Assembly (NCBI GenBank): GCA_964598125.1
Contig: CAZRAG010000001.1
Coordinates: forward strand, 8,810-72,809
Direction: 5' to 3'
Length of the DNA: 64,000 nucleotides
Source of the DNA: an uncultured Pseudomonadales bacterium
GTDB taxonomy: Bacteria; Patescibacteriota; Microgenomatia; UBA1400; UBA1396
The translations under genes were made by a program, and so were the position numbers. Numbering within the stretch: the stretch's first letter is position 1; every line of letters begins with the position of its first letter. The notes under the pieces are model-generated. The model was not told the DNA's origin, did not search any database, and saw nothing but the letters and a program-made list of their open reading frames with translations. Of this stretch, positions 397 to 32,316 are shown one piece after another.

Positions 397-468
397 TCCC
401 CTGTAGCTCAACGGTAGAGCAGGAAGCTGTTAACTTCAAGGTTCGTGGTTCGAATCCACGCGGGGGAG
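397..468 (+). tRNA. tRNA-Asn (anticodon GTT)
   Basis: Hand-folded cloverleaf. Acceptor stem 397-403 pairs with 461-467 (7 bp, one G-U). D arm is gctc/gagc. Anticodon stem ggaag/cttca carries loop cTGTTAa with U33 and A37, giving anticodon GTT. T arm is cgtgg-TTCGAAT-ccacg, with discriminator G468. The 3' CCA is not encoded. Confidence 0.85.
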
Positions 469-628
469 CATAGAAAAATCCGCATTTGCGGTTTTTTTAT
501 GCTCTCTTGCTAAGGAGGGAGCCATGTTCCGAAGGGGTCGAGCATTCCTTACTCTTGATGCATGCGAGACAACCCGAGTGCAGGCTAAGCGAGTGGAAGC
601 GAGCGAAGTCGCTAAGACACGCGGGGAT
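461..628. repeat. Direct repeat copy 1: tRNA 3' end plus ~160-bp downstream flank, attL-like
   Basis: Positions 462-580 are near-identical to 4155-4272. Similarity continues at about 75% identity to about 628/4322. The repeat begins inside the tRNA acceptor 3' strand (gggggagcat). Confidence 0.7.
474..498 (+). terminator. Hairpin plus T-run downstream of the tRNA; also present in repeat copy 2
   Basis: aaaaatccgcatttgcggttttttt has a short GC stem (ccgc/gcgg) extended by an A/T arm, then T7. It is a weak stem, and bidirectional in principle. Confidence 0.4.
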
Positions 629-715
629 CCAGATCGTTATGACAATTCTCAAAACAGTTATTGGGAAAAGGGTCTTCCTGTCAAATCGACTTCATTAACT
701 GAAAATGTTCTTTAA
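524..715 (+). CDS. Small hypothetical protein (63 aa) encoded within the repeat. Its N-terminal 19 aa are duplicated at 4218
   Basis: A strong SD (aaggaggg) lies 5-6 nt upstream of the ATG. The first 19 codons are identical to the copy at 4218..4355 apart from synonymous changes, after which the two diverge. It could instead be non-coding att-flank sequence. Confidence 0.25.
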   Translation: MFRRGRAFLTLDACETTRVQAKRVEASEVAKTRGDPDRYDNSQNSYWEKGLPVKSTSLTENVL

Positions 716-1646
716 TTGCAAAGTTCACGCTACTCCTGTCTCGGGATTTATCAAAACCAGTAACCCGATAATAGTCCTTTTTCCCACCATGGCTTAAGGC
801 AAGTGACCTGTTGGGCCAGAGCTTGTACAGATTTTTCAACCACTTTTTTTCATTACGTTTGGTAATGGAGCTCATTATTGTGTAACCGATGAAATCAGGC
901 AAAAATAGTTGGAGATGCTCCTGCTCACTACCGATAATAAAGTCTTCGAAAAATTTCTTAGCATTATGATGGTGAACATCACCATTCTCAGAGTGGTAGA
1001 CAAGATAGGGATGCTCAGCGTCCCATTCTTCAGGAGTATATATGCTGTATTTATGGTTAAGTTCGCTGGTTGTAAGAATCATCGTTGCCTGAACCAGGCG
1101 AATGAATTTATTTGGTTGATTCTGGGTATCAATAATATGGTGCATGCGCCATTCATCCCTGGATACATGTGTGTAAACATAGTCAAACTGGAAAAATCTT
1201 TGCCATTCAAGAAATATTTCTGTAAACATCACAAATTTTGCGTAATCTCCGACGCTATAATTTCTTAATTGATCAAAATAAAGGCGCAAGTCATCAACGT
1301 ATGATGGTTGTAGCTGATCGCCCATTTCTACAATTTTCTCCTCAGCCTTTTTAATAGTCTCTGTGCAGTGTCTTTCAACCCAGGTTTCGTCCTCTGAAGT
1401 CAAGTCATAAATGAATGATGTGTATTTTATTTCTTGATGCGCGTTAATATAATTAAGCACTTTTTTTCTTACTTCGTCATTAATGGTTTTTCCTTTAACA
1501 CCCATCAAACCTTGAGGAAATAGTCGGTCCATGAACTTTTGAAAAGAAGACCATTCTGCGTCAGTAATAGTTACCAAAGTAACAATTCCAAATCGTTTTT
1601 TTGTCGAATCACGAAAAGAGCCAGTTTCGTCCAAGACAACGTACAT
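681..1646 (-). CDS. DUF3800-like protein (N-terminal MYVVLDETG motif)
   Basis: 321-aa ORF. The N-terminal hydrophobic-x-DE(S/T)G motif is characteristic of DUF3800. It is the first gene of the islet next to the tRNA. Confidence 0.5.
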   Translation of the reverse strand: MYVVLDETGSFRDSTKKRFGIVTLVTITDAEWSSFQKFMDRLFPQGLMGVKGKTINDEVRKKVLNYINAHQEIKYTSFIYDLTSEDETWVERHCTETIKKAEEKIVEMGDQLQPSYVDDLRLYFDQLRNYSVGDYAKFVMFTEIFLEWQRFFQFDYVYTHVSRDEWRMHHIIDTQNQPNKFIRLVQATMILTTSELNHKYSIYTPEEWDAEHPYLVYHSENGDVHHHNAKKFFEDFIIGSEQEHLQLFLPDFIGYTIMSSITKRNEKKWLKNLYKLWPNRSLALSHGGKKDYYRVTGFDKSRDRSSVNFAIKEHFQLMKSI

Positions 1647-1722
1647 ATTCTAATCATATAAGATAATTTAGAACAAATCGATCAACTATCTTCGCTTATT
1701 ATAAAATTGATATGATGTATTC

Positions 1723-2004
1723 ATGAAATCTCTATTCGGATTAGTAATTATCTGCTTCATATCGTTTTGGTTATGGAATAACGTTATTTCCCCTCCAAAG
1801 TACATTGGCTTCTACTATCCTGATTCTAGTAACCTTTTTATCTACAAGCAAAGTCCAGAGTTAAGCTCACTAGAGCAATGCCATGAATGGGTTAATGAAG
1901 TTAGTAATGAAAGGACAGACACGAATTTTGACTATGAATGCGGTAAAGATTGTAAATTGAGTAAAAGTGGTGAAATGTATGTCTGTGATGAGACTCTCAA
2001 ATAA
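1723..2004 (+). CDS. Small secreted or membrane-anchored hypothetical protein
   Basis: 93-aa ORF with an N-terminal hydrophobic segment and several Cys in the C-terminal part. Confidence 0.4.
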   Translation: MKSLFGLVIICFISFWLWNNVISPPKYIGFYYPDSSNLFIYKQSPELSSLEQCHEWVNEVSNERTDTNFDYECGKDCKLSKSGEMYVCDETLK

Positions 2005-2042
2005 ATTGTAATTCTTGCATAAGTAGATATAGAATATCGTTA

Positions 2043-2585
2043 ATGGGAAAAAGATTCCTTATATATCTTACAGTTTTTGTTTTTTTGCTTTCATTTTCTC
2101 CATCCGTTTTAGCTCATCCCGGTAGAACAGCGGCTGATGGCTGTCACTACTGTCGAACAAATTGTGATAAGTGGGGAGTACCTTGGGACGAACGACATTG
2201 TCACAACGGTGGAAGTGCACCAGCTGTGACCCCTCCAAAACCAGTTGCCACACGAAAGCCATACGCTGCACCAACCTCCAAACCGACCCTCAGACCCACC
2301 TACAAACCTGTAGCTTCGCCAACACCCCTTCGAACATGTTCAGCTACCAGTGACGGTATTTGTCCAAACAACTGTACGGCTGGAAACGATAGTGATTGCT
2401 GTGCTAGAAAATCAGACTACAAATGGTATGACAACTGGGGATGTTATCCCAAAAAACTTTTTTGTTCTGCTCAATCCGATGGTGTGTGTCACTGGTACTG
2501 TTCAGCAGGAAATGACGCCGATTGCTGTGAACAAAAATTAGAGAGTTATCAGTGGTATGAAAACTGGGGATGTTATGAAAAATGA
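2043..2585 (+). CDS. Secreted cysteine-rich protein with two tandem ~43-aa Cys repeats and an N-terminal H-x-G-x4-DGCHYC motif
   Basis: Signal peptide MGKRFLIYLTVFVFLLSFSPSVLA. Repeats are CSATSDGICPNNCTAGNDSDCCARKSDYKWYDNWGCYPKK and CSAQSDGVCHWYCSAGNDADCCEQKLESYQWYENWGCYEK, separated by a Pro/Thr-rich linker. Confidence 0.6.
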   Translation: MGKRFLIYLTVFVFLLSFSPSVLAHPGRTAADGCHYCRTNCDKWGVPWDERHCHNGGSAPAVTPPKPVATRKPYAAPTSKPTLRPTYKPVASPTPLRTCSATSDGICPNNCTAGNDSDCCARKSDYKWYDNWGCYPKKLFCSAQSDGVCHWYCSAGNDADCCEQKLESYQWYENWGCYEK

Positions 2586-3054
2586 CAGTTATTCATTGGA
2601 CAAGTCAATAAAATTTTTACTCATGATTGCAGTATGTGTAATTTTTTTGCTGTTTGGTTTGGCCTATTGGTATCTACATCTGTCTGGTGATAACTGTCAA
2701 TCAGCAACGACTGAGAACCAAATTGATGGCGTATCTATCCATAATATAAACAATAAAATCTCTTATTTGGAAATCGTTGATCTCAATGACGATGGAATTG
2801 ATGAAGGAATTTTTCGTCTAACAAGTATGTCTTGGATTTCTGAGATTCGAATTCTTAATGATGAGCTATTGCCTCTCTGCGATAAATGCGACTTTTTAGT
2901 TCGCAATGGTGGTCTCGAATACGTTGATCTTGATAATGATAAAGTCTTTGAACTCATTATCACGAATGAAGTTGAATACACAAATGAAGTAGAAGAGATT
3001 TTTTCGGAAAGAAGCACATATTGGTGGGTTAATGATAATTACGAGAAAAGATAG
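2575..3054 (+). CDS. Membrane-anchored hypothetical protein
   Basis: ORF 2557..3054. The internal ATG at 2575 gives a short overlap with the upstream stop. An N-terminal TM helix is followed by an acidic soluble domain. Confidence 0.45.
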   Translation: MKNDSYSLDKSIKFLLMIAVCVIFLLFGLAYWYLHLSGDNCQSATTENQIDGVSIHNINNKISYLEIVDLNDDGIDEGIFRLTSMSWISEIRILNDELLPLCDKCDFLVRNGGLEYVDLDNDKVFELIITNEVEYTNEVEEIFSERSTYWWVNDNYEKR

Positions 3055-3198
3055 AAAAATGTGTTTGAATATGCTTTTTAATAACCTCAACAAGCTAATA
3101 CTCATCTACAACAAAAAATTGTCAAGAATTGGTAAGACCTCTAATAAGTTAGGCAAACGATTGAAAAAGCAGATAAAGTCTCATCATGTTATAGAACA

Positions 3199-4002
3199 TC
3201 ATTTCCTATATTTCCCACCACAGAAATTTGCTGTCATCGTAAGTAACATTTCGTGAGGGATGTAACCCAACATGTTTTCTTTACCAGTTGGTTTTTTTAC
3301 ATATGTCATTTTACAAGCATCCCTATATATAGTAATTTCTTCTTCTATGCTCTCAGTTGTAGATACGGCAAATATTTTTTCTTCATCCCATTTAGTAACA
3401 TTAAACAAAGATTTGTCCACTGTTAACCATCCATTATTCCATTTTTGAACTGTACCTGTAAGCCATTCGCATTGCATCTTATCCTGATCACAGTCCACAG
3501 AAATCCACCTTGCCTCATCTGCTAACTTGCTTACATCATCCCAGTCTCCTTCAATTTTAACTGATCTTCCGTAATCATAAATATTTGAAAATCCTTCTAT
3601 ACTACTCGTCTTATAATAATATGAACCATCAAAAAGAATATATAAAATCAGCCATGCTAAAAAGAAAATCAAAAAAATATTCCACTTTTTATAACTCGGA
3701 AATATTTTTTCATTCCTCTTGCGTAAGATATCCCATATTTTTTTAATTCCCAAAATAACTAGTGAAAAAATATTCGTGATAACTAATATTCCTGTAATGA
3801 TCAAAAAGAATGATATAACATTGAGTTTAAGATCATTAGTAGATTCATAGAGAAAATATAGAGCTATGAAGGGTGATGACAAGTTGAAGAGAACTAGAAT
3901 GAATCTAGCAATTTTCAAAATGAGATTTTTTTCTATTAACTTTCCTTCTAAAAAAATTGGAAGTGTATTAAATAATGGGTTTTTTTCCACTTTTTTTATC
4001 AT
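3199..4002 (-). CDS. Polytopic membrane protein with a C-terminal soluble domain
   Basis: 267-aa ORF with about 4 predicted TM helices in the N-terminal half, followed by a Trp- and Cys-containing C-terminal domain. Confidence 0.5.
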   Translation of the reverse strand: MIKKVEKNPLFNTLPIFLEGKLIEKNLILKIARFILVLFNLSSPFIALYFLYESTNDLKLNVISFFLIITGILVITNIFSLVILGIKKIWDILRKRNEKIFPSYKKWNIFLIFFLAWLILYILFDGSYYYKTSSIEGFSNIYDYGRSVKIEGDWDDVSKLADEARWISVDCDQDKMQCEWLTGTVQKWNNGWLTVDKSLFNVTKWDEEKIFAVSTTESIEEEITIYRDACKMTYVKKPTGKENMLGYIPHEMLLTMTANFCGGKYRK

Positions 4003-4124
4003 AAGTTGAATATATCAATAAATTTCTTAATATGTGAAGTAAATTTTCATCAGCTTGTTGTAGTCATGAAGTCAGAATAAACAATTCCTCAAAGAATCAT
4101 GTCCACTAAATATGAATACCTCAA

Positions 4125-4322
4125 CCCACTCCCTTGTTCGTATACCAACCATCTGGGGGAGCATAGAAAAATCCGCATTTTCGGTTTTTTTTATGCTCTC
4201 TTGCTAAGGAGGGAGCCATGTTCCGAAGGGGTCGAGCATTCCTTACTCTTGATGCATGTGAGACCACCCGAGTGCTGATGGAGCGAGTGACAACGAGCGG
4301 AGACGCAAAGACACGCGAGGGA
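4125..4322. repeat. Islet right-end arm (4125-4154) plus direct repeat copy 2 (4155-4322), attR-like
   Basis: 4155-4272 matches 462-580. The preceding 30 bp (cccactcccttgttcgtataccaaccatct) resemble 11708-11737 (cccaccccctggttcgagtaccaaccatcc). Confidence 0.7.
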
Positions 4323-4355
4323 GGTAAATTGGATTGGCAGGTGCCACATCAATGA
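4218..4355 (+). CDS. Second copy of the repeat-encoded small ORF (45 aa)
   Basis: Same SD and N-terminus (MFRRGRAFLTLDACETTRV) as 524..715. It diverges downstream and is shorter. Confidence 0.2.
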   Translation: MFRRGRAFLTLDACETTRVLMERVTTSGDAKTREGGKLDWQVPHQ

Positions 4356-4510
4356 AGTACAATGCAAAATTTTCAATTGGATCAGTCAGAAATGCACAAA
4401 AAGGCAAAGGAATACCCGCTGCTTTTGAGGGTGAGCTTCCAAAAGGAAAATATGATATTCATTCTGAACTCAAAGTTCCCTAGGTGGTGGGAAATTTATG
4501 AGAGAGCAGC

Positions 4511-5284
4511 TTAGCCTACGAGGTTATAGAGTTGTTGGTTGATACTCTTCCAAGAAGCTTCAAACTGGTTCTTCAGTTCATTTGAGGACTCAATTTCATC
4601 CAAAAGTCTGAGCCCGATTTTTATCAAACTTCCATGAGTAATCATTAGGGCCATTTCAATATCTCTTTCAGATGCCCCAGTAATAAGTTCCTGAGTTGTG
4701 TGATCCAAGATGTCACTTGGTGAAGTGTGATTCTTTCGGTTTCCAGCCACATAGACCTTCAATACTGTTTCTTTTTCAGATGAATTTAACAATCCTTTGT
4801 TTACAAGCCATTCAATTATTTGCTCAACACTTTGGCCTGACCAATTGTTTCGTTTTCTTAGCTTCTCAGGAACTTGATCGTAGCTCTTATTCACCAGCTC
4901 TTGCACTTGTTCTTCAACAGTTGATCCGAATGATAATAGGAATTCCATATCATTTTTTTGATCTACAGCTACATAGTCTAAAAATTGATCTGTGTATTTC
5001 TCTTTATCTTTTTCCGCTATATATTCCATATAAATCATGTCTTCAAAAACTCTTCTTGATAAATCAAGCATTGATCCACCAACTACTATTTGTAAGTCTG
5101 GCATTTTTTCAACCTCATCAGCGAGCATCACAAGAGTTTGTAATGTGAAATAACCTTTTCTGAAAACAAGCTCAAGTATTCTGCCAAATTTTGACTTATA
5201 CTTATTTGGTCCCGTAACTACAGGGTGAGCAATTGATAAAAACTTCTGAGATTTATCAAGAAATTCTGGTCGTTTTGTTGACAT
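4511..5284 (-). CDS. Hypothetical protein
   Basis: The listed ORF 4511..5362 begins at a TTG. The internal ATG at 5284 (MSTKRPEFL...) avoids overlap with the divergent gene. No recognisable domain. Confidence 0.45.
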   Translation of the reverse strand: MSTKRPEFLDKSQKFLSIAHPVVTGPNKYKSKFGRILELVFRKGYFTLQTLVMLADEVEKMPDLQIVVGGSMLDLSRRVFEDMIYMEYIAEKDKEKYTDQFLDYVAVDQKNDMEFLLSFGSTVEEQVQELVNKSYDQVPEKLRKRNNWSGQSVEQIIEWLVNKGLLNSSEKETVLKVYVAGNRKNHTSPSDILDHTTQELITGASERDIEMALMITHGSLIKIGLRLLDEIESSNELKNQFEASWKSINQQLYNLVG

Positions 5285-5339
5285 ATCAGTATGATAACAA
5301 AACAGAGACAAACAAAGAAATAATATAGGTAACCATGTT

Positions 5340-6125
5340 ATGAAAAATAATCTTTTTTCCAAAGATGAAGTGGCTTGCTCTGATAAATTTGATCAACTCT
5401 TTTCAAGCGAGATCAAACTATTTTCAAATCTCTTTGAACAATTGGAAAGCTTTGTCAGTCAAATTAGTGGGAAAATAAAAGACACTGAGAGACCAGATTA
5501 TACTGTTGAAATATTACTGGTCCATAACCTTTCACTTTTCGCCTGTGCTTTCAACCAATTACGAAGTGGATACTTGGGGGTTTCTCAAGCAACTCTTCGC
5601 TCTATAGCTGAAAATCTTACAATGTCTATGTATTATTGGGAATTTCCAGAGCACGAAAAGAAATACCGGGACAATACGAGATCGTTGTGGAATTCTATAA
5701 AGCAAAAAGGGTATGCAGGTGAATGGATGGATTTGGCATTAGCTCGGATTGATAAAGAAGGAAAAGTTTTCAAAATTCTTGATGAAAGCGGTGAAAGAAG
5801 TTGGCAGAAGTTTATTTCTCAAAACCTGATGGAAGAAGCAAGTAGTTTTTTACATCAAAATTTTCACTTCGTTGAAGCACTTGTTTATCAAACTACTAGT
5901 AATGATGGTAAAAACCACTTTGTATATGGACCGCATTGGAACAACGATGAGGTCATGAAGAACGGACTCTGGAAACTTATTGAAGCACTGATATTTGAAA
6001 CAATTGTTTTTGACACAGTGTTCAAAAAATTTATAAATGTGAATGATAGGAAGCTGGTTGGTGAAGCGGTGGATCAGCTAAACGAATGGAAAATTGAATA
6101 CAATAAATCTGAGGAAAAATTATAA
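5340..6125 (+). CDS. Hypothetical protein
   Basis: 261-aa ORF, divergent from 4511..5284 across a 55-bp intergenic region. No recognisable motifs. Confidence 0.5.
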   Translation: MKNNLFSKDEVACSDKFDQLFSSEIKLFSNLFEQLESFVSQISGKIKDTERPDYTVEILLVHNLSLFACAFNQLRSGYLGVSQATLRSIAENLTMSMYYWEFPEHEKKYRDNTRSLWNSIKQKGYAGEWMDLALARIDKEGKVFKILDESGERSWQKFISQNLMEEASSFLHQNFHFVEALVYQTTSNDGKNHFVYGPHWNNDEVMKNGLWKLIEALIFETIVFDTVFKKFINVNDRKLVGEAVDQLNEWKIEYNKSEEKL

Positions 6126-6252
6126 GAAACACATCCTGATTTCTTCCAATGCGGTAAGCAGTTTATCAGACCTCAAGTAATACATCCCACAACTTAATAC
6201 ACCGAAATAGAAGCTAGAACCTTGATGAGTTTTTGATATACTTTGAGGCATT

Positions 6253-6900
6253 ATGCCTCCAGAAATAACCAACATCGATTTAATCAATCTTGTCGCTGCC
6301 ATAGCCTCACTAGTTTTGGCTGTTATAGCTATTTGGCAAGCTATCCATTTTTATAACCAAGCAAAGTCTACCGAGTTAAATACCGCACTTACACTAGAAA
6401 GTATAAAGACCCAATCAACCATGCTCGAGCGCTTAACTGCTAAATGGATGGACAGATTTACTAAATACGTTACTAATCCCAGACCGATTGATGAAACAAC
6501 TACTAAACTTTTGGAGTTTATAGAAATAAGGCAGATGGCTTTAAATTTACCTTCTCCTGAAGACAGTAAACAAAAAAGCGAGTTAATTCAGGAACTTATC
6601 ACAAGCTACATAGCAGTACTTTATTATGTTGGGATATCCAATATTACAACTCAGCAACATCTCCCTGAAGCAATTGAAGACCTAGATCAAAATGAAGGAA
6701 TTAAACAAATTGTTGATCAAAGTAAAGCCGATTACGTTTATTTGAAAGGTGTATTAGCTAATATTGACCAAACTCAACTTGAATCTAGTAGACTAAAACA
6801 TTTATACGATCAAGCTCTCGGATGGAATCAATTTATAAAAGATACTGCATCAGTTTATAGTAGTAGGGCAAGCAATACAAATCAAGGAAGTGGTACCTAA
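6253..6900 (+). CDS. Membrane-anchored hypothetical protein
   Basis: 215 aa with an N-terminal TM helix (LINLVAAIASLVLAVIAIW) followed by a helical soluble domain. Confidence 0.45.
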   Translation: MPPEITNIDLINLVAAIASLVLAVIAIWQAIHFYNQAKSTELNTALTLESIKTQSTMLERLTAKWMDRFTKYVTNPRPIDETTTKLLEFIEIRQMALNLPSPEDSKQKSELIQELITSYIAVLYYVGISNITTQQHLPEAIEDLDQNEGIKQIVDQSKADYVYLKGVLANIDQTQLESSRLKHLYDQALGWNQFIKDTASVYSSRASNTNQGSGT

Positions 6901-6933
6901 TAATAAAAGCAATTCCTGATTTCCTCTACAACG

Positions 6934-6949
6934 GGGAGCATACGAAAAC
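6934..6949. repeat. att-core-like fragment (ggggagcatacgaaaa)
   Basis: Matches the tRNA 3'-end/core gggggagcatagaaaa at 463-478 and 4156-4171. It lies in the intergenic region between two convergent genes. Confidence 0.3.
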
Positions 6950-6991
6950 CACACCATCTCCTAAAAAATTCACGCACTTCCTAAGCCTCCC

Positions 6992-8860
6992 TTACCCCAC
7001 CAACCTCTCTCTAAAATACTCCCTCGTCTCTGCATCAGCAGAAAAAATTGAGCAGCTCTTCATACCTCGGCTCATCAATGTTCGATAGGTGTTTTTAATA
7101 AGCGTATCAGCACGTTTTTGTGCTGCCTCCGGGTCCTCCTCATACGCCTTCTTATAACCTTTCAACGACTTGTCGAACTGATCTCGAGCGCCAGGATTCG
7201 TAACAACCTCACCATCTCTGACTATCAAATCAGGGCCAATAATGACGCCTACATGTTGTAACTCCAAGCCTTGGGCCGTGTGAATACAGCCCACTTGATC
7301 GATCGATTCTGGATTAATAATCCAAGTACCACCATGTTTTGATAAGTTCCACTGCATTTGGAATCCATATTCAGGGAACTCAATATCATACTCATTCGGA
7401 TTGTTCTTTGACTTCCACCGCCAACAGTATCCGGCCAGCATTCGAGCCCGATTGTCTGGTTTATTTAAAGTCTCAATATGCTGCTTTAAAAGCATCGGAT
7501 CATCAAAAACACGAAAGTCATACTCGGATTTTTCAAGCCGAATATTGGCCGTTGGTGTTATGCCCAAAGTATTGTCCAACCATGCTAAGTAACCATCCGA
7601 ACCATTGCACCGAAACTGTGATTCCAGTTCAAAAGAGTGAACATCTGCTCCATACCACTTCGCCCACTTTTCAATCTCCGCGACCGAACCCATATCTTGC
7701 CAAGTGACTTGTTGTGATTCATCAATAAAGAACACGGACACCTTAGCGGCACTTATGATTTCCTTTACCTGATTCTTCCCAAAATTGCTAAAAAGACCAC
7801 TTTTCTCTACTAAGCGGTGGGCCTCATCCGTAATCAGGGCATCGTACTCATTATCTGCAGAAGAAATGAAAGAGCCTGAACCGGTAAAGAGAGTATTAAT
7901 CTCTGATTGTTTGTAGGAGTTAGTGAGCTTTGCTTCAAAAACTTTCCGGGGCGCACTATTTTTTGTTACGTAACGGACATTCTTGCGGTGATCAATAATG
8001 CCAGCAGCTAGCAGGTTAATGGCGACCACAGACTTTCCTGTTCCTGGGCCACCCCGAATAATTATGACTTGCTTGCGAGCATGCTTGTCTGCATCCCGAA
8101 TGGCGCGAGAAGCATACTCAAAAACAATTTTTTGAGAGTCTACGAGCATGAAGGCTTGGTTCCCTTGCAGCATATCAAGCAATTTATTCGCCAACTCTTC
8201 TGTTGGCTTGTAGTTTGATTCCGATAGTACACGCAAAATGTTACAAGAATCCGACACAATACCGGCAGATTCGAAATGCTTAATCAGCTTTTCTCGATCC
8301 TGTTTTACAAATAGGGGAGACTGGGACCAATAGTGTCGGTAAAAATCACACAAAAGTTCGTTATTGGATTCACAATTATGAAGGTAGGCACAGGTACGAA
8401 TATCAATATTATGTTGTGAAACACTTTCGTTGAAGTTGCGCAAAAGGTGCGCGTAGGACAAAGCTTTCTGGGAGGGATGATTTGTTTCAGTATACCCACC
8501 GCCAAGCCAAGTCCGCACGATTCCATCCATGTCCGTTCTCTCAACTCGCGCCCACTGCTTGAGCTCCACAATATACACCTTCTGTTCACCCATAGATGTT
8601 TCACCAGCAAGAATAAAATCGATGCGCTTCTTGGTAAAGGGAATACCAAATTCTATCGCAACCGTTGCATCATCATGAAGATCAGCACTATTAACTACAT
8701 GGTACATGGCATTACCAATTGAGTTCTGCCACGCTTTGTACTCAGAGGATTGAGGTTTAATATTTATGAGTAGTTTTTCGCGAACTTGCTGGCGGACAAT
8801 ATCTTGGATATCTGGGGCATCTTGAAGAAACTGCTTCTTCGTAGCCTGGTAAACAATCAT
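6992..8860 (-). CDS. DUF2075-family protein: N-terminal PD-(D/E)xK nuclease-like module plus SF1-like ATPase (Schlafen-like helicase domain)
   Basis: 622 aa. The N-terminus has ...RIDFIL...(13 aa)...IVELKQW, a D...ExK restriction-endonuclease-like signature. Walker A is IIRGGPGTGKSVV, Walker B is LITDEAHRL, and a UvrD_C-like motif is IHTAQGLELQHVGVIIG. The start overlaps the MazG-like stop as ATGA. Confidence 0.75.
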   Translation of the reverse strand: MIVYQATKKQFLQDAPDIQDIVRQQVREKLLINIKPQSSEYKAWQNSIGNAMYHVVNSADLHDDATVAIEFGIPFTKKRIDFILAGETSMGEQKVYIVELKQWARVERTDMDGIVRTWLGGGYTETNHPSQKALSYAHLLRNFNESVSQHNIDIRTCAYLHNCESNNELLCDFYRHYWSQSPLFVKQDREKLIKHFESAGIVSDSCNILRVLSESNYKPTEELANKLLDMLQGNQAFMLVDSQKIVFEYASRAIRDADKHARKQVIIIRGGPGTGKSVVAINLLAAGIIDHRKNVRYVTKNSAPRKVFEAKLTNSYKQSEINTLFTGSGSFISSADNEYDALITDEAHRLVEKSGLFSNFGKNQVKEIISAAKVSVFFIDESQQVTWQDMGSVAEIEKWAKWYGADVHSFELESQFRCNGSDGYLAWLDNTLGITPTANIRLEKSEYDFRVFDDPMLLKQHIETLNKPDNRARMLAGYCWRWKSKNNPNEYDIEFPEYGFQMQWNLSKHGGTWIINPESIDQVGCIHTAQGLELQHVGVIIGPDLIVRDGEVVTNPGARDQFDKSLKGYKKAYEEDPEAAQKRADTLIKNTYRTLMSRGMKSCSIFSADAETREYFRERLVG

Positions 8861-9189
8861 AATTCAGAATATTTCTTGGCACTGCCACGGGCTTTTTCAA
8901 CTGGGTATTTTTGGGCGTTGTGCTCAATTTTTTGGAGAGCTGCTGCCTCAATGTCTATGCCTGCATCATGGGCGAGGAGGAGCACCCAGTTGTACACATC
9001 AGCCAGCTCATTACTAAGCGCTTCTTTTTGAGATTGAGTGAGACTTTCCTCTGTTGAGTGCCACTGAAATATTTCGAGAACTTCAGCTGCTTCTAAAACA
9101 AGTGACTGAGCGAGATTTTGCGGGCGGTGGTATTGTTTCCAGTCACGTTCCTCGCGGAAAGCGAGAAGTTTTTTGAGTACAGCATTCAT
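8857..9189 (-). CDS. MazG-like nucleoside triphosphate pyrophosphohydrolase (single domain)
   Basis: 110 aa carrying the MazG EExxE...ExxD pattern (LEAAEVLEIFQW ... ELADVYNWVLLLAHDAGIDIE). It is translationally coupled upstream of the DUF2075 gene. Confidence 0.75.
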   Translation of the reverse strand: MNAVLKKLLAFREERDWKQYHRPQNLAQSLVLEAAEVLEIFQWHSTEESLTQSQKEALSNELADVYNWVLLLAHDAGIDIEAAALQKIEHNAQKYPVEKARGSAKKYSEL

Positions 9190-11477: not shown

Positions 11478-11707
11478 AGCAGTGACAACGAAAATGCGTT
11501 CAAAAATTTCCAGCCGTCATCTCAAACTTTCAACTCGTTCAATCTTCAGGCCGCTAAGAAATTATTGGAATAACAGCCCACAAAATGTACTCCTGTTGAA
11601 CCACTAAAGCTAGTCCTATGCCAGCAATTCCATAACCCCACAACGGCCACCCAGTTAATTGAATCCTTCGCATATCTGCATTTTAGCAGTAAACAAATAC
11701 TGTGATA

Positions 11708-11748
11708 CCCACCCCCTGGTTCGAGTACCAACCATCCGGGGAGCATCC
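11708..11748. repeat. Islet right-end arm plus att-core-like fragment (distal boundary of the island array)
   Basis: cccaccccctggttcgagtaccaaccatccggggagcat is about 80% identical to 4125-4164, which directly precedes direct repeat copy 2. Confidence 0.5.
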
Positions 11749-11811: not shown

Positions 11812-12438
11812 ATGAATAAATTTCTTGCTACAAGAGATATTTATAACAAATTCGCTTCCCAATTTGCCGACAAACTCGACAAAATTCCCGAAACAACCCA
11901 ACTCGATGAATTTATAGCAATGCTACCTCCTCAAGCCACGGTCCTTGATCTAGGTTGTGGAGCGGGGCGAGACTCAGAATACCTGCACCAAAAGGGATTG
12001 CAGGTTATTGCCGTCGATCTTTCCGAAAACCTCATCGCCGAGGCAAAAAAGAGAAGACCACAAATAGATTTTCGCGTGATGGATATGGAAAATCTGGATT
12101 TTCCTCGTGAGACCTTTGATGGCATCTGGTCAAAACTCACTATTATCCACGTTGCGAGAGAGACGCTTCCAATGATTCTCGCAGACATTTATAAACTCTT
12201 AAAACCTGGTGGTGTCTTGATGATTGAAACGAAAGCTGGGGAGGGGGAGGGCTTTGAGCCAGTGAGTTTCAAAAATGATGAGCAACGGTACTTTGTTTAC
12301 TATGAGTTAGAGGAACTTATTCAACTCTTTCGGGACGCTGGATTTGAGAATGTCCAAGGCTACGAATACTCCGTCAAGAACGAACATGCCACCAAGAAAA
12401 AGGAACGAGTCGTTGTGAGTGGTCAAAAAGCAGCCTGA
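11812..12438 (+). CDS. Class I SAM-dependent methyltransferase
   Basis: Motif I VLDLGCGAGRDSEYL, followed by an acidic motif II (VAVDLSE). Confidence 0.75.
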   Translation: MNKFLATRDIYNKFASQFADKLDKIPETTQLDEFIAMLPPQATVLDLGCGAGRDSEYLHQKGLQVIAVDLSENLIAEAKKRRPQIDFRVMDMENLDFPRETFDGIWSKLTIIHVARETLPMILADIYKLLKPGGVLMIETKAGEGEGFEPVSFKNDEQRYFVYYELEELIQLFRDAGFENVQGYEYSVKNEHATKKKERVVVSGQKAA

Positions 12439-12508
12439 GTTCCACCTCAGAACAACAAAAGCCTTTGCTCTCCTTGCGCCCTTCTTACTAACTGCTAAAA
12501 TCGTTGTC

Positions 12509-13522
12509 ATGTCCACCCATCCGGACTCGCAACCCGTTGCCCTTAAATCGTTAAACATAGCTATTTTGTACTCCGACGCTAAACGTGAGTATTTTCAAAC
12601 CGAAGAACACTACTTAACTGAGGCTGAGGTTTTTCACCGGGCCCAAACCATTGCTAAGCAACTCGAAAAAGATGGCCACCATTGTTTCTTACTCCCAGGC
12701 AATCAAGATCTCGCTGAAAATCTCAAAGAGTGCAAGCCAGACATGGCCCTGAACTTAGTTGATTCTGTGTATGGTAAAGAGTTCTTGAGTGGTTCTATAC
12801 CTGGACTTTTGGAACTTCTTCAAATTCCGTACACGGGTTCCGGAATCCTTGGACAATCCATTAACAGTAACAAATACTTAACCAAGTCACTCATGAGGCA
12901 ATATGGAATAACCACACCAAAATTCCAGTTGGTTACTTCGGCCAATGATGAAATTGATCACCTCCTTGATTATCCCCTGATTGCTAAACTCAATGAGGTC
13001 CACGGTTCTTTAGAAATAAGCCGAGATTCTATTTGTTTTGATGAAAAGTCGCTCAAACAGGTTCTGAAACGCTTGTTTGCTACCTATGATCAACCCGTTC
13101 TCATTGAGGAGTTTATTGCAGGCAAAGAAATCACGGCAATTGTGGCCGAAGGAGGAGTAACCAAAATCTATGCCGGTGAAAGGCATTTTCTCAAACGCTC
13201 AGCATCGCCTTTTGAACAGATTGCCGCCTATGAAGATGTTTGGAGTGATGAACAAACAGTGGGCTATGATAAGTACGAACTGCCACTGACCGTAAAGGAA
13301 ATGATCAAGCTCACCTACAGCATTCTTCGCTTGGAAGATTATGCCCGCTTTGATATGCGGCTCGATCAGTCTGGTAGGCACTATATTATTGATGCCAACA
13401 GCAACCCCGCTTTAGGGTTAAGAAATGACACCGCTATTGGCACTCTGCTTGATTTATATGGCATTTCAATCTCAACGTTTATGGAAAGGTTACTACGCAA
13501 CACGCTGTATCCCAATCAATAA
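12509..13522 (+). CDS. ATP-grasp domain protein, D-Ala-D-Ala ligase-like
   Basis: The ATP-grasp fold pattern runs from IAILYSDAKRE through PLIAKLNEVHGSLEIS to IEEFIAGKEITAIV. The listed ORF starts at 12419 with a 20-nt overlap on the methyltransferase; the ATG at 12509 is used here. Confidence 0.6.
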   Translation: MSTHPDSQPVALKSLNIAILYSDAKREYFQTEEHYLTEAEVFHRAQTIAKQLEKDGHHCFLLPGNQDLAENLKECKPDMALNLVDSVYGKEFLSGSIPGLLELLQIPYTGSGILGQSINSNKYLTKSLMRQYGITTPKFQLVTSANDEIDHLLDYPLIAKLNEVHGSLEISRDSICFDEKSLKQVLKRLFATYDQPVLIEEFIAGKEITAIVAEGGVTKIYAGERHFLKRSASPFEQIAAYEDVWSDEQTVGYDKYELPLTVKEMIKLTYSILRLEDYARFDMRLDQSGRHYIIDANSNPALGLRNDTAIGTLLDLYGISISTFMERLLRNTLYPNQ

Positions 13523-21831: not shown

Positions 21832-23190
21832 TTAAGGGAGGGTAATGGTCACGGTTGAGCCCTTACCGACCCGAGACTCGAAATGAATGGTGCCTCCCAT
21901 ACTTTCAATCACCGCTTGAGAAATAGACAAACCTAATCCAGAACCAGCAGCCTTTGCCTGTGTTCCTCGGAAAAATCTAGAAAATATCTTATCTTTGTCT
22001 TGTGCAGTCACCCCAATTCCCGTATCAGCTAGAGTGAGGAGAATTCCATTAGGGGATTGACTCATCTCGATAGTGATCGACCCCGCTTGCCGGTTATAGA
22101 TTACGGCGTTGTGAGCAATGTTACTTATAGCCCGTAAAAAGAGTGGCCTGTTTCCCCGGATTGATATGTTCTTTTCAATCTTTGCGTGGACAGTAATATT
22201 TTTTTGCTCAGCCAAAGTCGAAGTAATCTCTACAAGCTCTGAAACAAGTTCGGAAAGAGAGAAGGTTGTCAATTCTTGATTATGGCTGTCTACCTTTGAG
22301 AGAAAAAGCAAATCCTGAATAGTTTCGTTAGTACTCTCAATGACATTTTGGAGTTCTGTTTTCTGGCGTAAGCTGATTGGCAAATTCTCTATTTGTGCAT
22401 GTAAAACCGCGAGTGGTGTTTTGAGGGTGTGAGCCGCATCTGAAAAGAAAATTCTTTCTCGAATAAAAACATCTTCCAGTTGGGCAAGCATGTGGTTGAG
22501 AGTTTTCTGAATCGTGGCTAACTCCTCCGTAGGTTGAGCGAGCTCTATCCGACGTGACAAGGATGTGCTGGTATTAATCTTCTGAGCCTGCTGAGCAATA
22601 CTCTGTAGTGGAGCCAACTGCTTTCGTAATAATCTATAACCCAAATACGTTAAGGGAACTATGCAAAACACGATGATGAGACCAACAATAAAGAGAATAT
22701 TTGTAAAGGTTGAGGTGAGAATCTGAGTAGAATAGCCAACTGCCAAAATACCTTTCCCGGCATTGATTTGCACCGGAACAGCGGCAAAGCGAATGCCACT
22801 CTCAGTAAAGTGGCTGGGAACAGAGTCGTTTACGTTACTTGAAGAAAGAATGCCTTGTAATTGATGCTCAGTCACAACCGCAACATCAGGACTATTGGTT
22901 TCTAAAATAGGTGAACCATCAGGTGAGAGCAGAACTATGGTCATACCTTTAGCACTTACCAGATTCTTCAATAACTCTTGGCGTTGCTCATTCTGAAACT
23001 GCTGCACAATCTGGGCTGCCTCGGTAACCACAATATGGACATGGTGATCAATCTGACTTTGCAACGTAAACCAAAAAAGAATACTCGTAGAAAGCAAGAG
23101 AAGAGAAACAATTGTTATGATCGAGCCTACATACCAGAGAGCAAGTTTACCCTGTAGACTCGTCCTGAAAGCGCTAAGAGTCTTTTTCAT
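21832..23190 (-). CDS. Sensor histidine kinase (HAMP-HisKA-HATPase)
   Basis: Two TM helices, an H-box (AAHTLKTPL), and C-terminal N/G-box motifs (GSGLGLSI). Confidence 0.8.
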   Translation of the reverse strand: MKKTLSAFRTSLQGKLALWYVGSIITIVSLLLLSTSILFWFTLQSQIDHHVHIVVTEAAQIVQQFQNEQRQELLKNLVSAKGMTIVLLSPDGSPILETNSPDVAVVTEHQLQGILSSSNVNDSVPSHFTESGIRFAAVPVQINAGKGILAVGYSTQILTSTFTNILFIVGLIIVFCIVPLTYLGYRLLRKQLAPLQSIAQQAQKINTSTSLSRRIELAQPTEELATIQKTLNHMLAQLEDVFIRERIFFSDAAHTLKTPLAVLHAQIENLPISLRQKTELQNVIESTNETIQDLLFLSKVDSHNQELTTFSLSELVSELVEITSTLAEQKNITVHAKIEKNISIRGNRPLFLRAISNIAHNAVIYNRQAGSITIEMSQSPNGILLTLADTGIGVTAQDKDKIFSRFFRGTQAKAAGSGLGLSISQAVIESMGGTIHFESRVGKGSTVTITLP

Positions 23191-31008: not shown

Positions 31009-32316
31009 ATGAAAAATTTTTACCACCTTCTGGCGAATTCACTTATTGCTTCTATAACCAACTTTACGGTTTGGTTTGCTCTGGTTTTTTATGCCTACTT
31101 ACAAACACAGTCAGTCTTGGTCACCGGTGTTATTTCTGGTCTTTACTTAGTTGCTATTGCTTTATCTGGGTTTTGGTTTGGCAGTTTAGTTGATCACTAC
31201 AACAAAAAAAAACTCTTGATCGCTTCGAGTTTTCTCTCCCTGATTGCCTATGCTTCTGGCTTGGCCATCTACCTGACCAATTCGGGAGAAACCTTTGCCA
31301 ATCAAACCAGTCCGGTGTTATGGCTGCTGATTGTTATCTTGATGTTTGGTGTCGTATTAGGTGGGATTCGTAATATTACGGTTCCTACCATTGTCACCAT
31401 TATCGCTCCTGTTGACCAGAGGGACCGAGCGAATGGCCTGGTGGGGACGACATCAGGTATTTCTTTTCTAATTACATCAGTGATCAGCGGACTCCTGGTT
31501 GGTTCTTCTGGCTTGTACTGGGTTTTGATTCTTTCATTGATCGCTACGAGCATTTCCATTTTTGATTTATCGTTTATCTCCATTCACGAAATACCACAAG
31601 TAAAGAGCTCTGATCAATCCGCCCCGAAAAATATGGATGTCCGAGGAACAATCAAGCTCATTATGTCTATACCAGGTTTTATGGCCCTCATTGCTTTCAC
31701 CACCTTCAACAATTTTCTAGGGGGCGTGTTCATGGCTTTGATGGATGCGTATGGTCTTTCTCTTGTGTCGGTAGAAATCTGGGGCCTTATTTGGGGAGGC
31801 CTGAGCACCGGTTTTATCATTGGTGGTCTTTTGATCTCAAAGTTTGGTTTGGGAAAGAACCCTCTATACACACTCTTTGCGGCCAACCTGGTGATTTGGA
31901 CCGTGAGTAGTCTTTTCACGCTTCAATCTTCCATTGTGTTACTGGTAATAGGTATGTTTATTTACCTAACCATTGTTCCGTTTATAGAAGCAGCCGAACA
32001 AACTATCATTCAAAAGGTCGTTCCACAGGAACGGCAGGGGAGAGTATTTGGTTTTGCGCACAGTGTTGAGCAAGCTGCTTCTCCGCTGACCGCTTTCTTT
32101 ATTGGCCCCTTGACCCAAATGGTCTTTATTCCCTTTATGACCACCGGTGCTGGCATTGACCTCATTGGCAGCTGGTTTGGCACCGGTGCAGATCGCGGTA
32201 TTGCCCTGGTGTTTACCTTAACGGGAGTTTTGGGATTACTGATTACAATTCTTGCTCGGCGTTCTCAAGCTACTCACCAGCTGGCCAAAGCCTATATTGA
32301 CCACCCGGGGAATTGA
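31009..32316 (+). CDS. MFS-family transporter
   Basis: 435 aa with about 12 TM helices and major-facilitator-like topology. Confidence 0.8.
   Translation: MKNFYHLLANSLIASITNFTVWFALVFYAYLQTQSVLVTGVISGLYLVAIALSGFWFGSLVDHYNKKKLLIASSFLSLIAYASGLAIYLTNSGETFANQTSPVLWLLIVILMFGVVLGGIRNITVPTIVTIIAPVDQRDRANGLVGTTSGISFLITSVISGLLVGSSGLYWVLILSLIATSISIFDLSFISIHEIPQVKSSDQSAPKNMDVRGTIKLIMSIPGFMALIAFTTFNNFLGGVFMALMDAYGLSLVSVEIWGLIWGGLSTGFIIGGLLISKFGLGKNPLYTLFAANLVIWTVSSLFTLQSSIVLLVIGMFIYLTIVPFIEAAEQTIIQKVVPQERQGRVFGFAHSVEQAASPLTAFFIGPLTQMVFIPFMTTGAGIDLIGSWFGTGADRGIALVFTLTGVLGLLITILARRSQATHQLAKAYIDHPGN

Follow-up and report, generated by a model that had tools for sequence, protein, structure and literature searches.

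Nhi (SERP2475 of Staphylococcus epidermidis) is a single-protein anti-phage nuclease-helicase that attacks phage replication intermediates (Bari et al., 10.1101/776245), and Nhi-like is a single-gene defense with an N-terminal nuclease and a DUF2075 domain (Millman et al., 10.1101/2022.05.11.491447). Here, we describe a gene of this architecture that is translationally coupled to a second gene for a small MazG-like pyrophosphatase. The pair lies on the minus strand of a 64,000-nucleotide stretch of contig CAZRAG010000001.1 (assembly GCA_964598125.1), called the window below. A first-pass annotation made from the sequence alone had proposed that the two genes form a new anti-phage system, and our analysis supports that proposal in part: the domains, the nuclease, the coupling, and the conservation of the pair were upheld, while the novelty of the large gene and the defense context in the window were not. 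We put the probability at roughly 55% that the two genes are a module of the Nhi-like class that is mobile, spreads horizontally, and is directed against phages or other mobile genetic elements, judging from sequence comparison and from the analogy with Nhi.

Mammalian DCTPP1, to which the small protein is related, prefers 5-modified deoxycytidine triphosphate (dCTP) and is thought to exclude 5-methyl-dCTP from DNA. Tal et al. reportedly described, in 2022, nucleotide-depletion defenses that use a dCTP deaminase or a dGTPase. The role proposed here is similar in that an enzyme destroying deoxynucleoside triphosphates (dNTPs) would act in an antiviral context, but unlike those enzymes the MazG-like protein has an all-alpha MazG fold and its gene is coupled to a nuclease gene.

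A small pyrophosphatase gene overlaps a nuclease-helicase gene

The MazG-like gene (positions 8857 to 9189, minus strand) encodes 110 amino acids, and the DUF2075 gene (6992 to 8860, minus strand) encodes 622, according to the open reading frame (ORF) list and the translations. The minus strand across the junction is ...GAATTATGATTGTT...; read as GAATTATGATTG, it places the TGA stop codon of the MazG-like gene over the ATG start codon of the DUF2075 gene, the two codons sharing ATGA at 8857 to 8860. Both ORFs and their overlap were confirmed as the first-pass annotation had described them, and the 4-nucleotide overlap bears out the translational coupling that it claimed. A scan for promoters and terminators around the operon gave 5 promoters, compared with 5.6 expected in shuffled controls, and we claim no promoter.

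The large protein is a PD-(D/E)xK nuclease fused to an SF1B helicase

Residues 263 to 609 of the 622-residue protein (7034 to 8074, minus strand) matched Pfam family PF09848 (SLFN-g3_helicase, formerly DUF2075) with an E value of 2.1e-97; the score was 327 bits (cut-off, 24), and the alignment spanned positions 1 to 354 of the profile. The DUF2075 assignment was thus upheld. Pfam, invariant motifs, and Foldseek all identify this segment as a superfamily 1B (SF1B) helicase/ATPase domain. Its translation contains a Walker A motif (GGPGTGKS, residues 270 to 277, positions 8030 to 8053, minus strand) and a DExH-type Walker B motif (DEAH, residues 345 to 348, positions 7817 to 7828, minus strand), and the protein also has an IHTAQGLE sequence like that of motif V/VI. 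The best Foldseek match of the ATPase domain was human SLFN11 (E value of 2e-11), followed by RecD, RecD2, Dna2, Dda, and Upf1.

At the N terminus, the first 230 or so residues (8171 to 8860, minus strand) form a domain with a restriction-endonuclease-like alpha/beta fold of the PD-(D/E)xK superfamily and the D...(D/E)xK residues on core strands. The nuclease motif reads RIDFIL...IVELKQW, in which the D...(D/E)xK residues are D81 (8618 to 8620), E99 (8564 to 8566), and K101 (8558 to 8560), all on the minus strand. In a 40-sequence alignment, D81, E99, K101, the Walker A motif, and DEAHR were all invariant. Every motif that the annotation had listed for this protein (IDFIL...ELK, GGPGTGKS, DEAH, and a UvrD_C-like motif) is present in the translation, and the PD-(D/E)xK module that it had placed at the N terminus was upheld. 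The full-length predicted model had a mean confidence score (pLDDT) of 79.7. Names given for comparison with the nuclease were the nuclease domains of Can2, Card1, and VC1899 and the proteins Kpn2I, PfoI, Upx, NucC, McrC, Shedu, and HamA. A sequence search of the PDB with the 622-residue protein gave no match, and its PHROG match was weak (phrog_325, "Dda-like helicase"). Together, these results show that the large protein is a PD-(D/E)xK nuclease fused to a Schlafen/RecD-type SF1B helicase.

Nhi and AbiO likewise join an N-terminal PD-(D/E)xK nuclease and a DUF2075 SF1B helicase in one polypeptide, and so does Nhi-like, which was compared by description only. Because nuclease-DUF2075 fusions are a published architecture, the large gene is not of an unknown kind; the statement that the gene pair is unnamed fails for this gene but stands for its MazG-like partner, which looks undescribed. 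At the level of sequence the relationship to Nhi is narrower. The PADLOC Nhi/AbiO profiles matched only residues 235 to 419, the P-loop region, with E values of about 1e-10 (for the Nhi profile PDLC02372, only positions 198 to 331 of 470, E value of 2.8e-10), and since the match covers that region alone, the 622-residue protein is not placed in the Nhi sequence family. Unlike its helicase, its N-terminal domain is not detectably homologous by sequence to that of Nhi or AbiO. Nhi also works alone, whereas the DUF2075 gene studied here has an almost constant MazG-like partner. The best PADLOC match was to the candidate system PDC-S41 (E value of 1.9e-15, residues 3 to 321), but this amounts to 54 bits in two partial stretches compared with an E value of 7.7e-287 for true members, and the protein does not belong to that family either. 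Nhi-like and PDC-S41 are both described as single genes without a pyrophosphatase partner, unlike the present pair.

SLFN11 and the other group-3 Schlafens share the PF09848 family and the ATPase fold with the large protein. Unlike them, it lacks the RNase core that carries the antiviral tRNase activity and has a restriction-endonuclease fold at its N terminus; without a Schlafen RNase core and its Ex4ExK active site, it is not a pSlfn protein. The antiviral parallel with Schlafens that the annotation had drawn therefore holds for the helicase, which is Schlafen-like, but not for the defense function, since published bacterial Schlafen defenses concern the RNase domain that is absent here.

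A database search returned more than 8000 homologs of the 622-residue protein, the best of them 50 to 55% identical and mostly from metagenome-assembled genomes of Patescibacteria. About one third of the close homologs are longer (approximately 770 to 800 amino acids) and end in a C-terminal Peptidase_S24 domain of the LexA/UmuD type; they include P0007, P0020, P0026, P0043, P0059, P0060, and P0099 and proteins encoded at loci L005 (6001 to 8310) and L099 (4355 to 6787). The Ser/Lys dyad of this domain is kept, and a Cys-Gly site in the relatives aligns with what we take to be the Ala-Gly cleavage site of LexA. These features suggest that self-cleavage stimulated by RecA on single-stranded DNA (ssDNA) serves as a switch in those relatives. 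The protein encoded in the window has no S24 domain.

The S24 domains also bear on the main rival explanation, in which the pair is a DNA-damage-response or repair module under SOS-like control: the DCTPP1-like enzyme would clean up non-canonical dCTP, and the nuclease-helicase would process damaged or stalled forks on the cell's own chromosome. LexA/UmuD-type domains in about a third of close homologs, high sequence conservation across Patescibacteria, and the house-cleaning role of DCTPP1 are all in keeping with this explanation. RecA-triggered activation is, however, equally compatible with the sensing of phage infection. Considering also the genomic evidence given below, we regard a repair module as unlikely.

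The small protein is related to DCTPP1

The 110-residue protein matched Pfam family PF12643 (MazG-like) with an E value of 2.2e-17 and 63.5 bits, above the gathering cut-off of 27, and more weakly PF03819 (MazG; E value of 1.1e-4), so that profile searches uphold its assignment as MazG. In a sequence search of the PDB it was matched to mouse RS21-C6/DCTPP1 (E value of 1.2e-20, residues 10 to 110) and to human DCTPP1 (E value of 7.8e-15), and its PHROG match was phrog_3301 "pyrophosphatase" (E value of 4.5e-15). The metal-binding motif is E33-x2-E36...E61-x2-D64 (codons at 8998 to 9093, minus strand, read from the translation); the annotation had written it as EExxE...ExxD, of which the ExxE...ExxD part is correct and the extra leading E is not. 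These residues align with the metal site of RS21-C6. Among 74 MazG-like partners from related loci, E33, E36, and E61 were conserved in 100% and D64 in 99%, and R15, W17, H21, F41, W43, K87, and N91 were each conserved in at least 96%. Because the catalytic residues are nearly invariant, the partner is predicted to be maintained as an active enzyme.

The whole 110-residue protein aligns with the catalytic core of DCTPP1/RS21-C6 (PDB 2a3q, 2oig, 6sqw, and 7mu5). The proteins have in common an ERDW-Q(F/Y)H-P-NL motif, the ExxE...ExxD metal site, and a C-terminal YP...GS..KY tail. Unlike eukaryotic DCTPP1, the bacterial version has no N- and C-terminal extensions, and its gene shares an operon with a nuclease-helicase gene. 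From the full-length alignment, the shared motifs, the metal residues, and the C-terminal tail, we conclude that the small protein is a predicted minimal DCTPP1-type all-alpha dNTP pyrophosphatase and not a generic MazG. It matched no model in PADLOC 2.0.

The two genes are conserved as a pair

Relatives of the DUF2075 gene were collected from metagenome contigs by a pattern scan (>553 found), the 80 loci most similar to the query were retained, and adjacent MazG-like genes were detected with a profile derived from 120 sequences of the MazG-like family. In 64 of the 80 loci, a MazG-like gene directly adjoins the DUF2075 gene. Three gene orders occur: MazG upstream on the same strand (49 loci), downstream on the same strand (9 loci), and downstream in convergent orientation (6 loci). 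Gaps in the MazG-upstream loci mostly range from -4 to about +20 nucleotides, and the 4-nucleotide overlap is found in 11 of the 49 and also in L003. When four distinct contigs were looked up, the MazG-like gene was directly upstream in all four and the other neighbors were unrelated. Adjacency in 64 of 80 related loci is far above chance, and the fact that it persists in three gene orders strongly indicates that the genes are functionally linked. The pairwise distances of the two proteins are correlated over 71 loci (Pearson r of 0.56), a value reached in 0 of 999 Mantel permutations. When the flanking ORFs were clustered, every other neighbor family was confined to at most 15 of 94 loci, which indicates that the two genes move as a unit. 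The 16 loci without a MazG-like gene fall into divergent subclades with other partners.

Plasmids of Priestia aryabhattai, Marivirga, and the archaeon Halalkalicoccus jeotgali carry the pair, and those of Halomonas, Hymenobacter, and Methanosphaera carry related DUF2075 genes. Distant phyla and archaea have members of the family at 42 to 49% identity, which implies horizontal transfer. B. thuringiensis plasmid pKK1 encodes a more distant DUF2075 relative that aligns from end to end at 24% identity and keeps the nuclease motif; the gene order there is NTP pyrophosphohydrolase (PRA-PH/MazG superfamily), HNH endonuclease, DUF2075. Conservation of the pair across genomes, which the first-pass annotation had named as a check on its proposal, was thus found across loci, gene orders, and plasmids.

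The MazG side was surveyed in five look-ups on long contigs. One relative is coupled to a DUF2075-S24 fusion, and another has DNA methyltransferase and DEAD helicase genes around it. The closest long-contig relative looked up (61% identity; L097, 4001 to 5295) overlaps by 4 nucleotides with the gene for a TagI/McrA-like HNH_2 nuclease, and this MazG-HNH pair adjoins DUF5677 and HEPN_AbiU2 genes. The last two have the conserved order cytidylate kinase, acyltransferase, MazG-like (L100, 2656 to 4384; L101, 2658 to 4381) and are probably a housekeeping, dCTP-metabolizing version of the same enzyme. The MazG-like family thus has housekeeping members as well as nuclease-linked ones, and the dCTPase-like gene seems able to switch between nuclease partners, whether DUF2075 or HNH.

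An exchangeable small gene, coupled upstream of a large nuclease gene and carried with it on plasmids and islets, could also belong to a toxin-antitoxin-like or regulatory pair. The MazG-like protein would then restrain or gate a nuclease-helicase that is toxic to its own cell, perhaps through removal of a nucleotide that activates it, and the pair would mainly serve addiction or stabilization of a mobile element; MazE-like and other toxin-antitoxin genes do occur near some loci. However, the strictly conserved catalytic residues predict that the small protein acts as an enzyme and not as a mere binding antitoxin, the 16 of 80 relatives without a MazG-like neighbor indicate that the nuclease-helicase is tolerated alone, and the convergent arrangement in 6 loci is atypical for toxin-antitoxin operons. 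We consider this explanation improbable.

The distribution in viral collections was compared with a further explanation, that a phage MazG and a Dda-like helicase form a phage or satellite replication or counter-defense pair left in a cryptic prophage. MazG-like enzymes and Dda-type helicases are often encoded by phages, and the weak PHROG matches phrog_3301 and phrog_325 fit such an origin. A 22-kb record named "Microcystis phage Mwe-JY31" (PP438423.1; L092) carries a DUF2075 gene with 49% identity, and an unannotated ORF of about 110 amino acids directly upstream of it matches the MazG-like profile. Against this, the record has 18 genes, and in the stretch examined 11 of 11 were annotated as hypothetical, with no evident structural genes. 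Of 50,697 phage records, only 4 contained the family, and 2.9 million viral contigs yielded just 3 full- or near-full-length relatives, at 30 to 33% identity; the viral and metagenome scans (3 versus >553 relatives) used overlapping pattern sets, with YVTKN[AS]AP in both. A phage-borne origin of the pair is unlikely because the family is rare in viral collections, and a phage-derived function of the kind described is, in our estimation, highly improbable. The DUF2075 gene of the Microcystis record adjoins a gene for a TPR protein, and the record may be a defense islet or satellite rather than a phage.

Relatives of the pair lie beside type IV restriction enzymes

The recurrent neighbors of the pair in related loci are type IV, modified-cytosine-dependent restriction enzymes (EVE-HNH, MrcB_N-HNH, and SauUSI-like PLD-helicase-DUF3427 proteins), and type IV enzymes as a class (SauUSI, VcaM4I, TagI/McrA, and McrB-N fusions) are its commonest identifiable neighbors. 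The EVE-HNH enzyme VcaM4I, which depends on 5mC or 5hmC, has a close homolog (PDB 6yex, E value of 2.7e-90) encoded beside the DUF2075 gene in 7 loci; MazG is present in 4 of these. A second HNH_2 family lies near the DUF2075 gene in 5 loci. SauUSI-like PLD-helicase-DUF3427 proteins are encoded directly beside the pair in L028 and L034, and a protein of about 1030 amino acids in L020 falls into the same BLAST cluster (by cluster membership only, its domains being unscanned). In L082, the MazG/DUF2075-S24 pair is followed by a gene (3592 to 7437) for a 1282-residue protein composed of S-adenosylmethionine (SAM) methyltransferase, PLD, SF2 helicase, Peptidase_S24, and DUF3427 domains; members of its cluster with the same length follow the pair in L066, L081, L084, and L087. 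Two of the domains of the L082 protein are unusual additions to what is otherwise a SauUSI-like type IV enzyme. A cluster of "1032-aa" neighbors that seemed to include a gene of the window was rejected as a single-linkage artifact arising through the methyltransferase domain.

MazG-less loci carry instead a VcaM4I homolog, other HNH_2 proteins, or a second DUF2075 paralog. This very divergent second paralog adjoins the first DUF2075 gene in L017 (3029 to 5002), L031 (3014 to 4996), L018 (2931 to 4835), L083 (1601 to 3532), and L089 (10098 to 11987); the L017 paralog (658 amino acids, confirmed only as PF09848) matched the 622-residue protein with an E value of 2e-5. True PDC-S41 matches, with E values down to 7.7e-287, were found among the sampled neighbors. 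These strong matches probably come from the second paralogs, and some loci probably encode two nuclease-helicases.

Other defense genes were found near relatives as well. The Priestia operon consists of MrcB_N-HNH (PADLOC mREase_IV), MazG, and DUF2075 genes and is flanked by type I restriction-modification and ABC-three-component genes. On Hymenobacter plasmids, the DUF2075 gene lies beside a restriction-modification system, a DUF3883 protein, and Druantia DruA. Among 150 randomly chosen neighbor ORFs, the top PADLOC families were HNH (9), mREase_IV (5 and 4), PbeA (5), REase_I (4), and MTase_II. McaZI-type modification-dependent enzymes have previously been noted to adjoin DUF2075 genes (PMC6765204). 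By raw neighbor counts, as distinct from genome-wide enrichment, relatives of the pair lie in defense islands and the islet in the window does not. The defense-gene neighborhood that the annotation had looked for was therefore recovered in the relatives, where it includes restriction-modification, type IV, Druantia DruA, ABC-three-component, and HEPN_AbiU2 genes, but not in the window, and the claim of a defense island rests on relatives and not on the window's own islet. The pair is also not itself a type IV system: unlike such systems, the two proteins and the islet in the window lack a recognizable modified-base reader (EVE, SRA, DUF3427, or MrcB_N), and such readers are present only in neighboring genes of the relatives.

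These neighborhoods also speak to the repair explanation. A UvrA-like neighbor in one locus, a MutT-like neighbor in another, and the MazG-like relatives beside cytidylate kinase in a conserved housekeeping context would suit a repair function. The recurrent partners of the pair, however, are restriction enzymes and not repair genes, and its neighborhood is not conserved. Its presence on plasmids and in a tRNA-flanked, low-G+C islet, and the horizontal transfer implied by its occurrence in distant phyla and archaea, likewise argue against a repair module.

In the window, the pair lies in a tRNA-linked islet

A tRNA-Asn(GTT) gene at 397 to 469 (plus strand; ARAGORN; Rfam RF00005, 63.6 bits) is the likely integration site of tandem islets. 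Degenerate copies of its 3' part, found by repeat search and alignment, lie at 4124 to 4158 and 11707 to 11741 (both plus strand; 86% identical to each other) and are the proposed left and right borders of the islet that holds the pair. The 165 nucleotides after the tRNA (462 to 626) are repeated at 4155 to 4320 with 88 to 97% identity. The pair thus lies in an islet of about 7.5 kb bounded by tRNA-derived repeats, with a second islet (approximately 470 to 4124) between it and the tRNA gene, and the arrangement looks like two tandem islets inserted at tRNA-Asn. The G+C content is 30 to 40% between 1000 and 7000, compared with 43 to 52% further on. The tRNA was the sole match in the Rfam scan. 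The tRNA-linked islet of the first-pass annotation is consequently borne out by the tRNA gene and by the 3' copies that bracket the pair, but no integrase was detected in the islet. A mobile islet is a plausible reading of this setting. Flanking tRNA-derived repeats would also be expected of the cryptic prophage considered above, but no structural, integrase, or other phage genes were detected in the islet.

Among the neighboring ORFs of the window, PADLOC, Pfam, and PHROG scans recognized only a DUF5677 protein and a methyltransferase. The DUF5677 protein is encoded within the islet of the pair (4511 to 5362, minus strand; Pfam E value of 6.6e-7), where the other ORFs are orphans. A shared islet type with L097, which also has a DUF5677 gene, was considered and dropped, as the two DUF5677 proteins have no detectable pairwise similarity. 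Elsewhere in the window, the ORFs at 12419 to 13522, 21832 to 23190, and 31009 to 32316 encode D-Ala-D-Ala ligase-like, histidine kinase, and MFS transporter proteins that score far below the NCBIfam cut-offs. Housekeeping proteins this divergent point to a very divergent, uncultured lineage, probably within the Patescibacteria to judge from the closest homologs of the pair.

Discussion

What is new in this locus is the almost obligatory dCTPase-like partner of an Nhi-like nuclease-helicase, a partnership often embedded in type IV loci. A full-text literature search found no paper that connects a MazG- or DCTPP1-like partner to proteins of the DUF2075 or Nhi-like kind; newer catalogs may list the pair under another name.

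If the pair is an anti-phage module, the nuclease-helicase would load on invading or replicating foreign DNA and degrade it, by analogy with Nhi on phage replication intermediates. The first-pass annotation had invoked depletion of nucleotide pools as the defense logic. Since the small protein is DCTPP1-like and the neighbors are modified-cytosine-dependent restriction enzymes, hydrolysis of dCTP or 5-modified dCTP is the more apt form of that idea, and general depletion of the NTP pool is not indicated. The MazG-like partner would thus hydrolyze dCTP or, like DCTPP1, preferentially 5-methyl- or 5-hydroxymethyl-dCTP. Two non-exclusive roles can be envisaged for it. In the first, hydroxymethyl-dCTP or methyl-dCTP made by the phage would be destroyed, and phages that have eliminated dCTP would stall, with forks and ssDNA exposed to the nuclease-helicase. 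In the second, modified dCMP from degraded phage DNA would be kept out of host DNA, which would spare the host from its own modification-dependent nucleases. In the relatives of about 770 amino acids, RecA-ssDNA filaments may provide the activating signal through the C-terminal S24 domain.

In its full form, this proposal is one of nucleotide-pool editing coupled to nuclease attack. A DCTPP1-like enzyme would selectively break down the 5-modified dCTP that the phage makes and so force unprotected DNA or fork stalling, or would keep recycled modified cytosine out of host DNA, and in either case would enable Nhi-like nuclease-helicases and type IV enzymes to act. An S24/RecA switch would operate in many lineages, and in bacteria and archaea the pair would represent an ancient equivalent of animal DCTPP1 and the SLFN11 helicase. 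We offer this as a tentative scheme, and we doubt that all of it will hold.

Several observations weigh against a defense function for the pair. Full-length identity of 50 to 55% across many Patescibacteria, with a mean column identity of 62%, is unusually high for a defense gene. The homology to a tested defense protein is remote, as the Nhi/AbiO match covers the P-loop region only. None of the 10 neighboring ORFs in the window matched a PADLOC model, and none had a phage-related PHROG match of known function. The 80 loci behind the adjacency counts are the most similar of the >553 relatives and include near-duplicates (L015 to L017; L081, L082, L084, and L087). Cytidylate kinase adjoins two MazG-like relatives in a conserved, housekeeping-type setting, and a DNA-damage response would account just as well for the S24 fusions and a nucleotide-sanitizing partner. 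The proposed preference for modified dCTP has homology to DCTPP1 as its sole source. The pair is best regarded as a solid, experimentally testable candidate and not as a demonstrated system.

Both proteins have human relatives in genome protection, DCTPP1 and the helicase domain of SLFN11. If the proposal is correct, a DCTPP1-type nucleotide-sanitizing enzyme would join the known anti-phage mechanisms, and the frequent travel of DUF2075 nuclease-helicases with modification-dependent restriction enzymes would be explained. It would also provide a direct handle on how cells defend themselves against phages that use modified cytosines as cover. Patescibacteria (the Candidate Phyla Radiation, CPR), a group whose defenses are poorly known, have the module in abundance. 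Because it also reaches archaea, and because Bacillus and Priestia strains that can be cultivated carry it on plasmids, the module is accessible to experiment.

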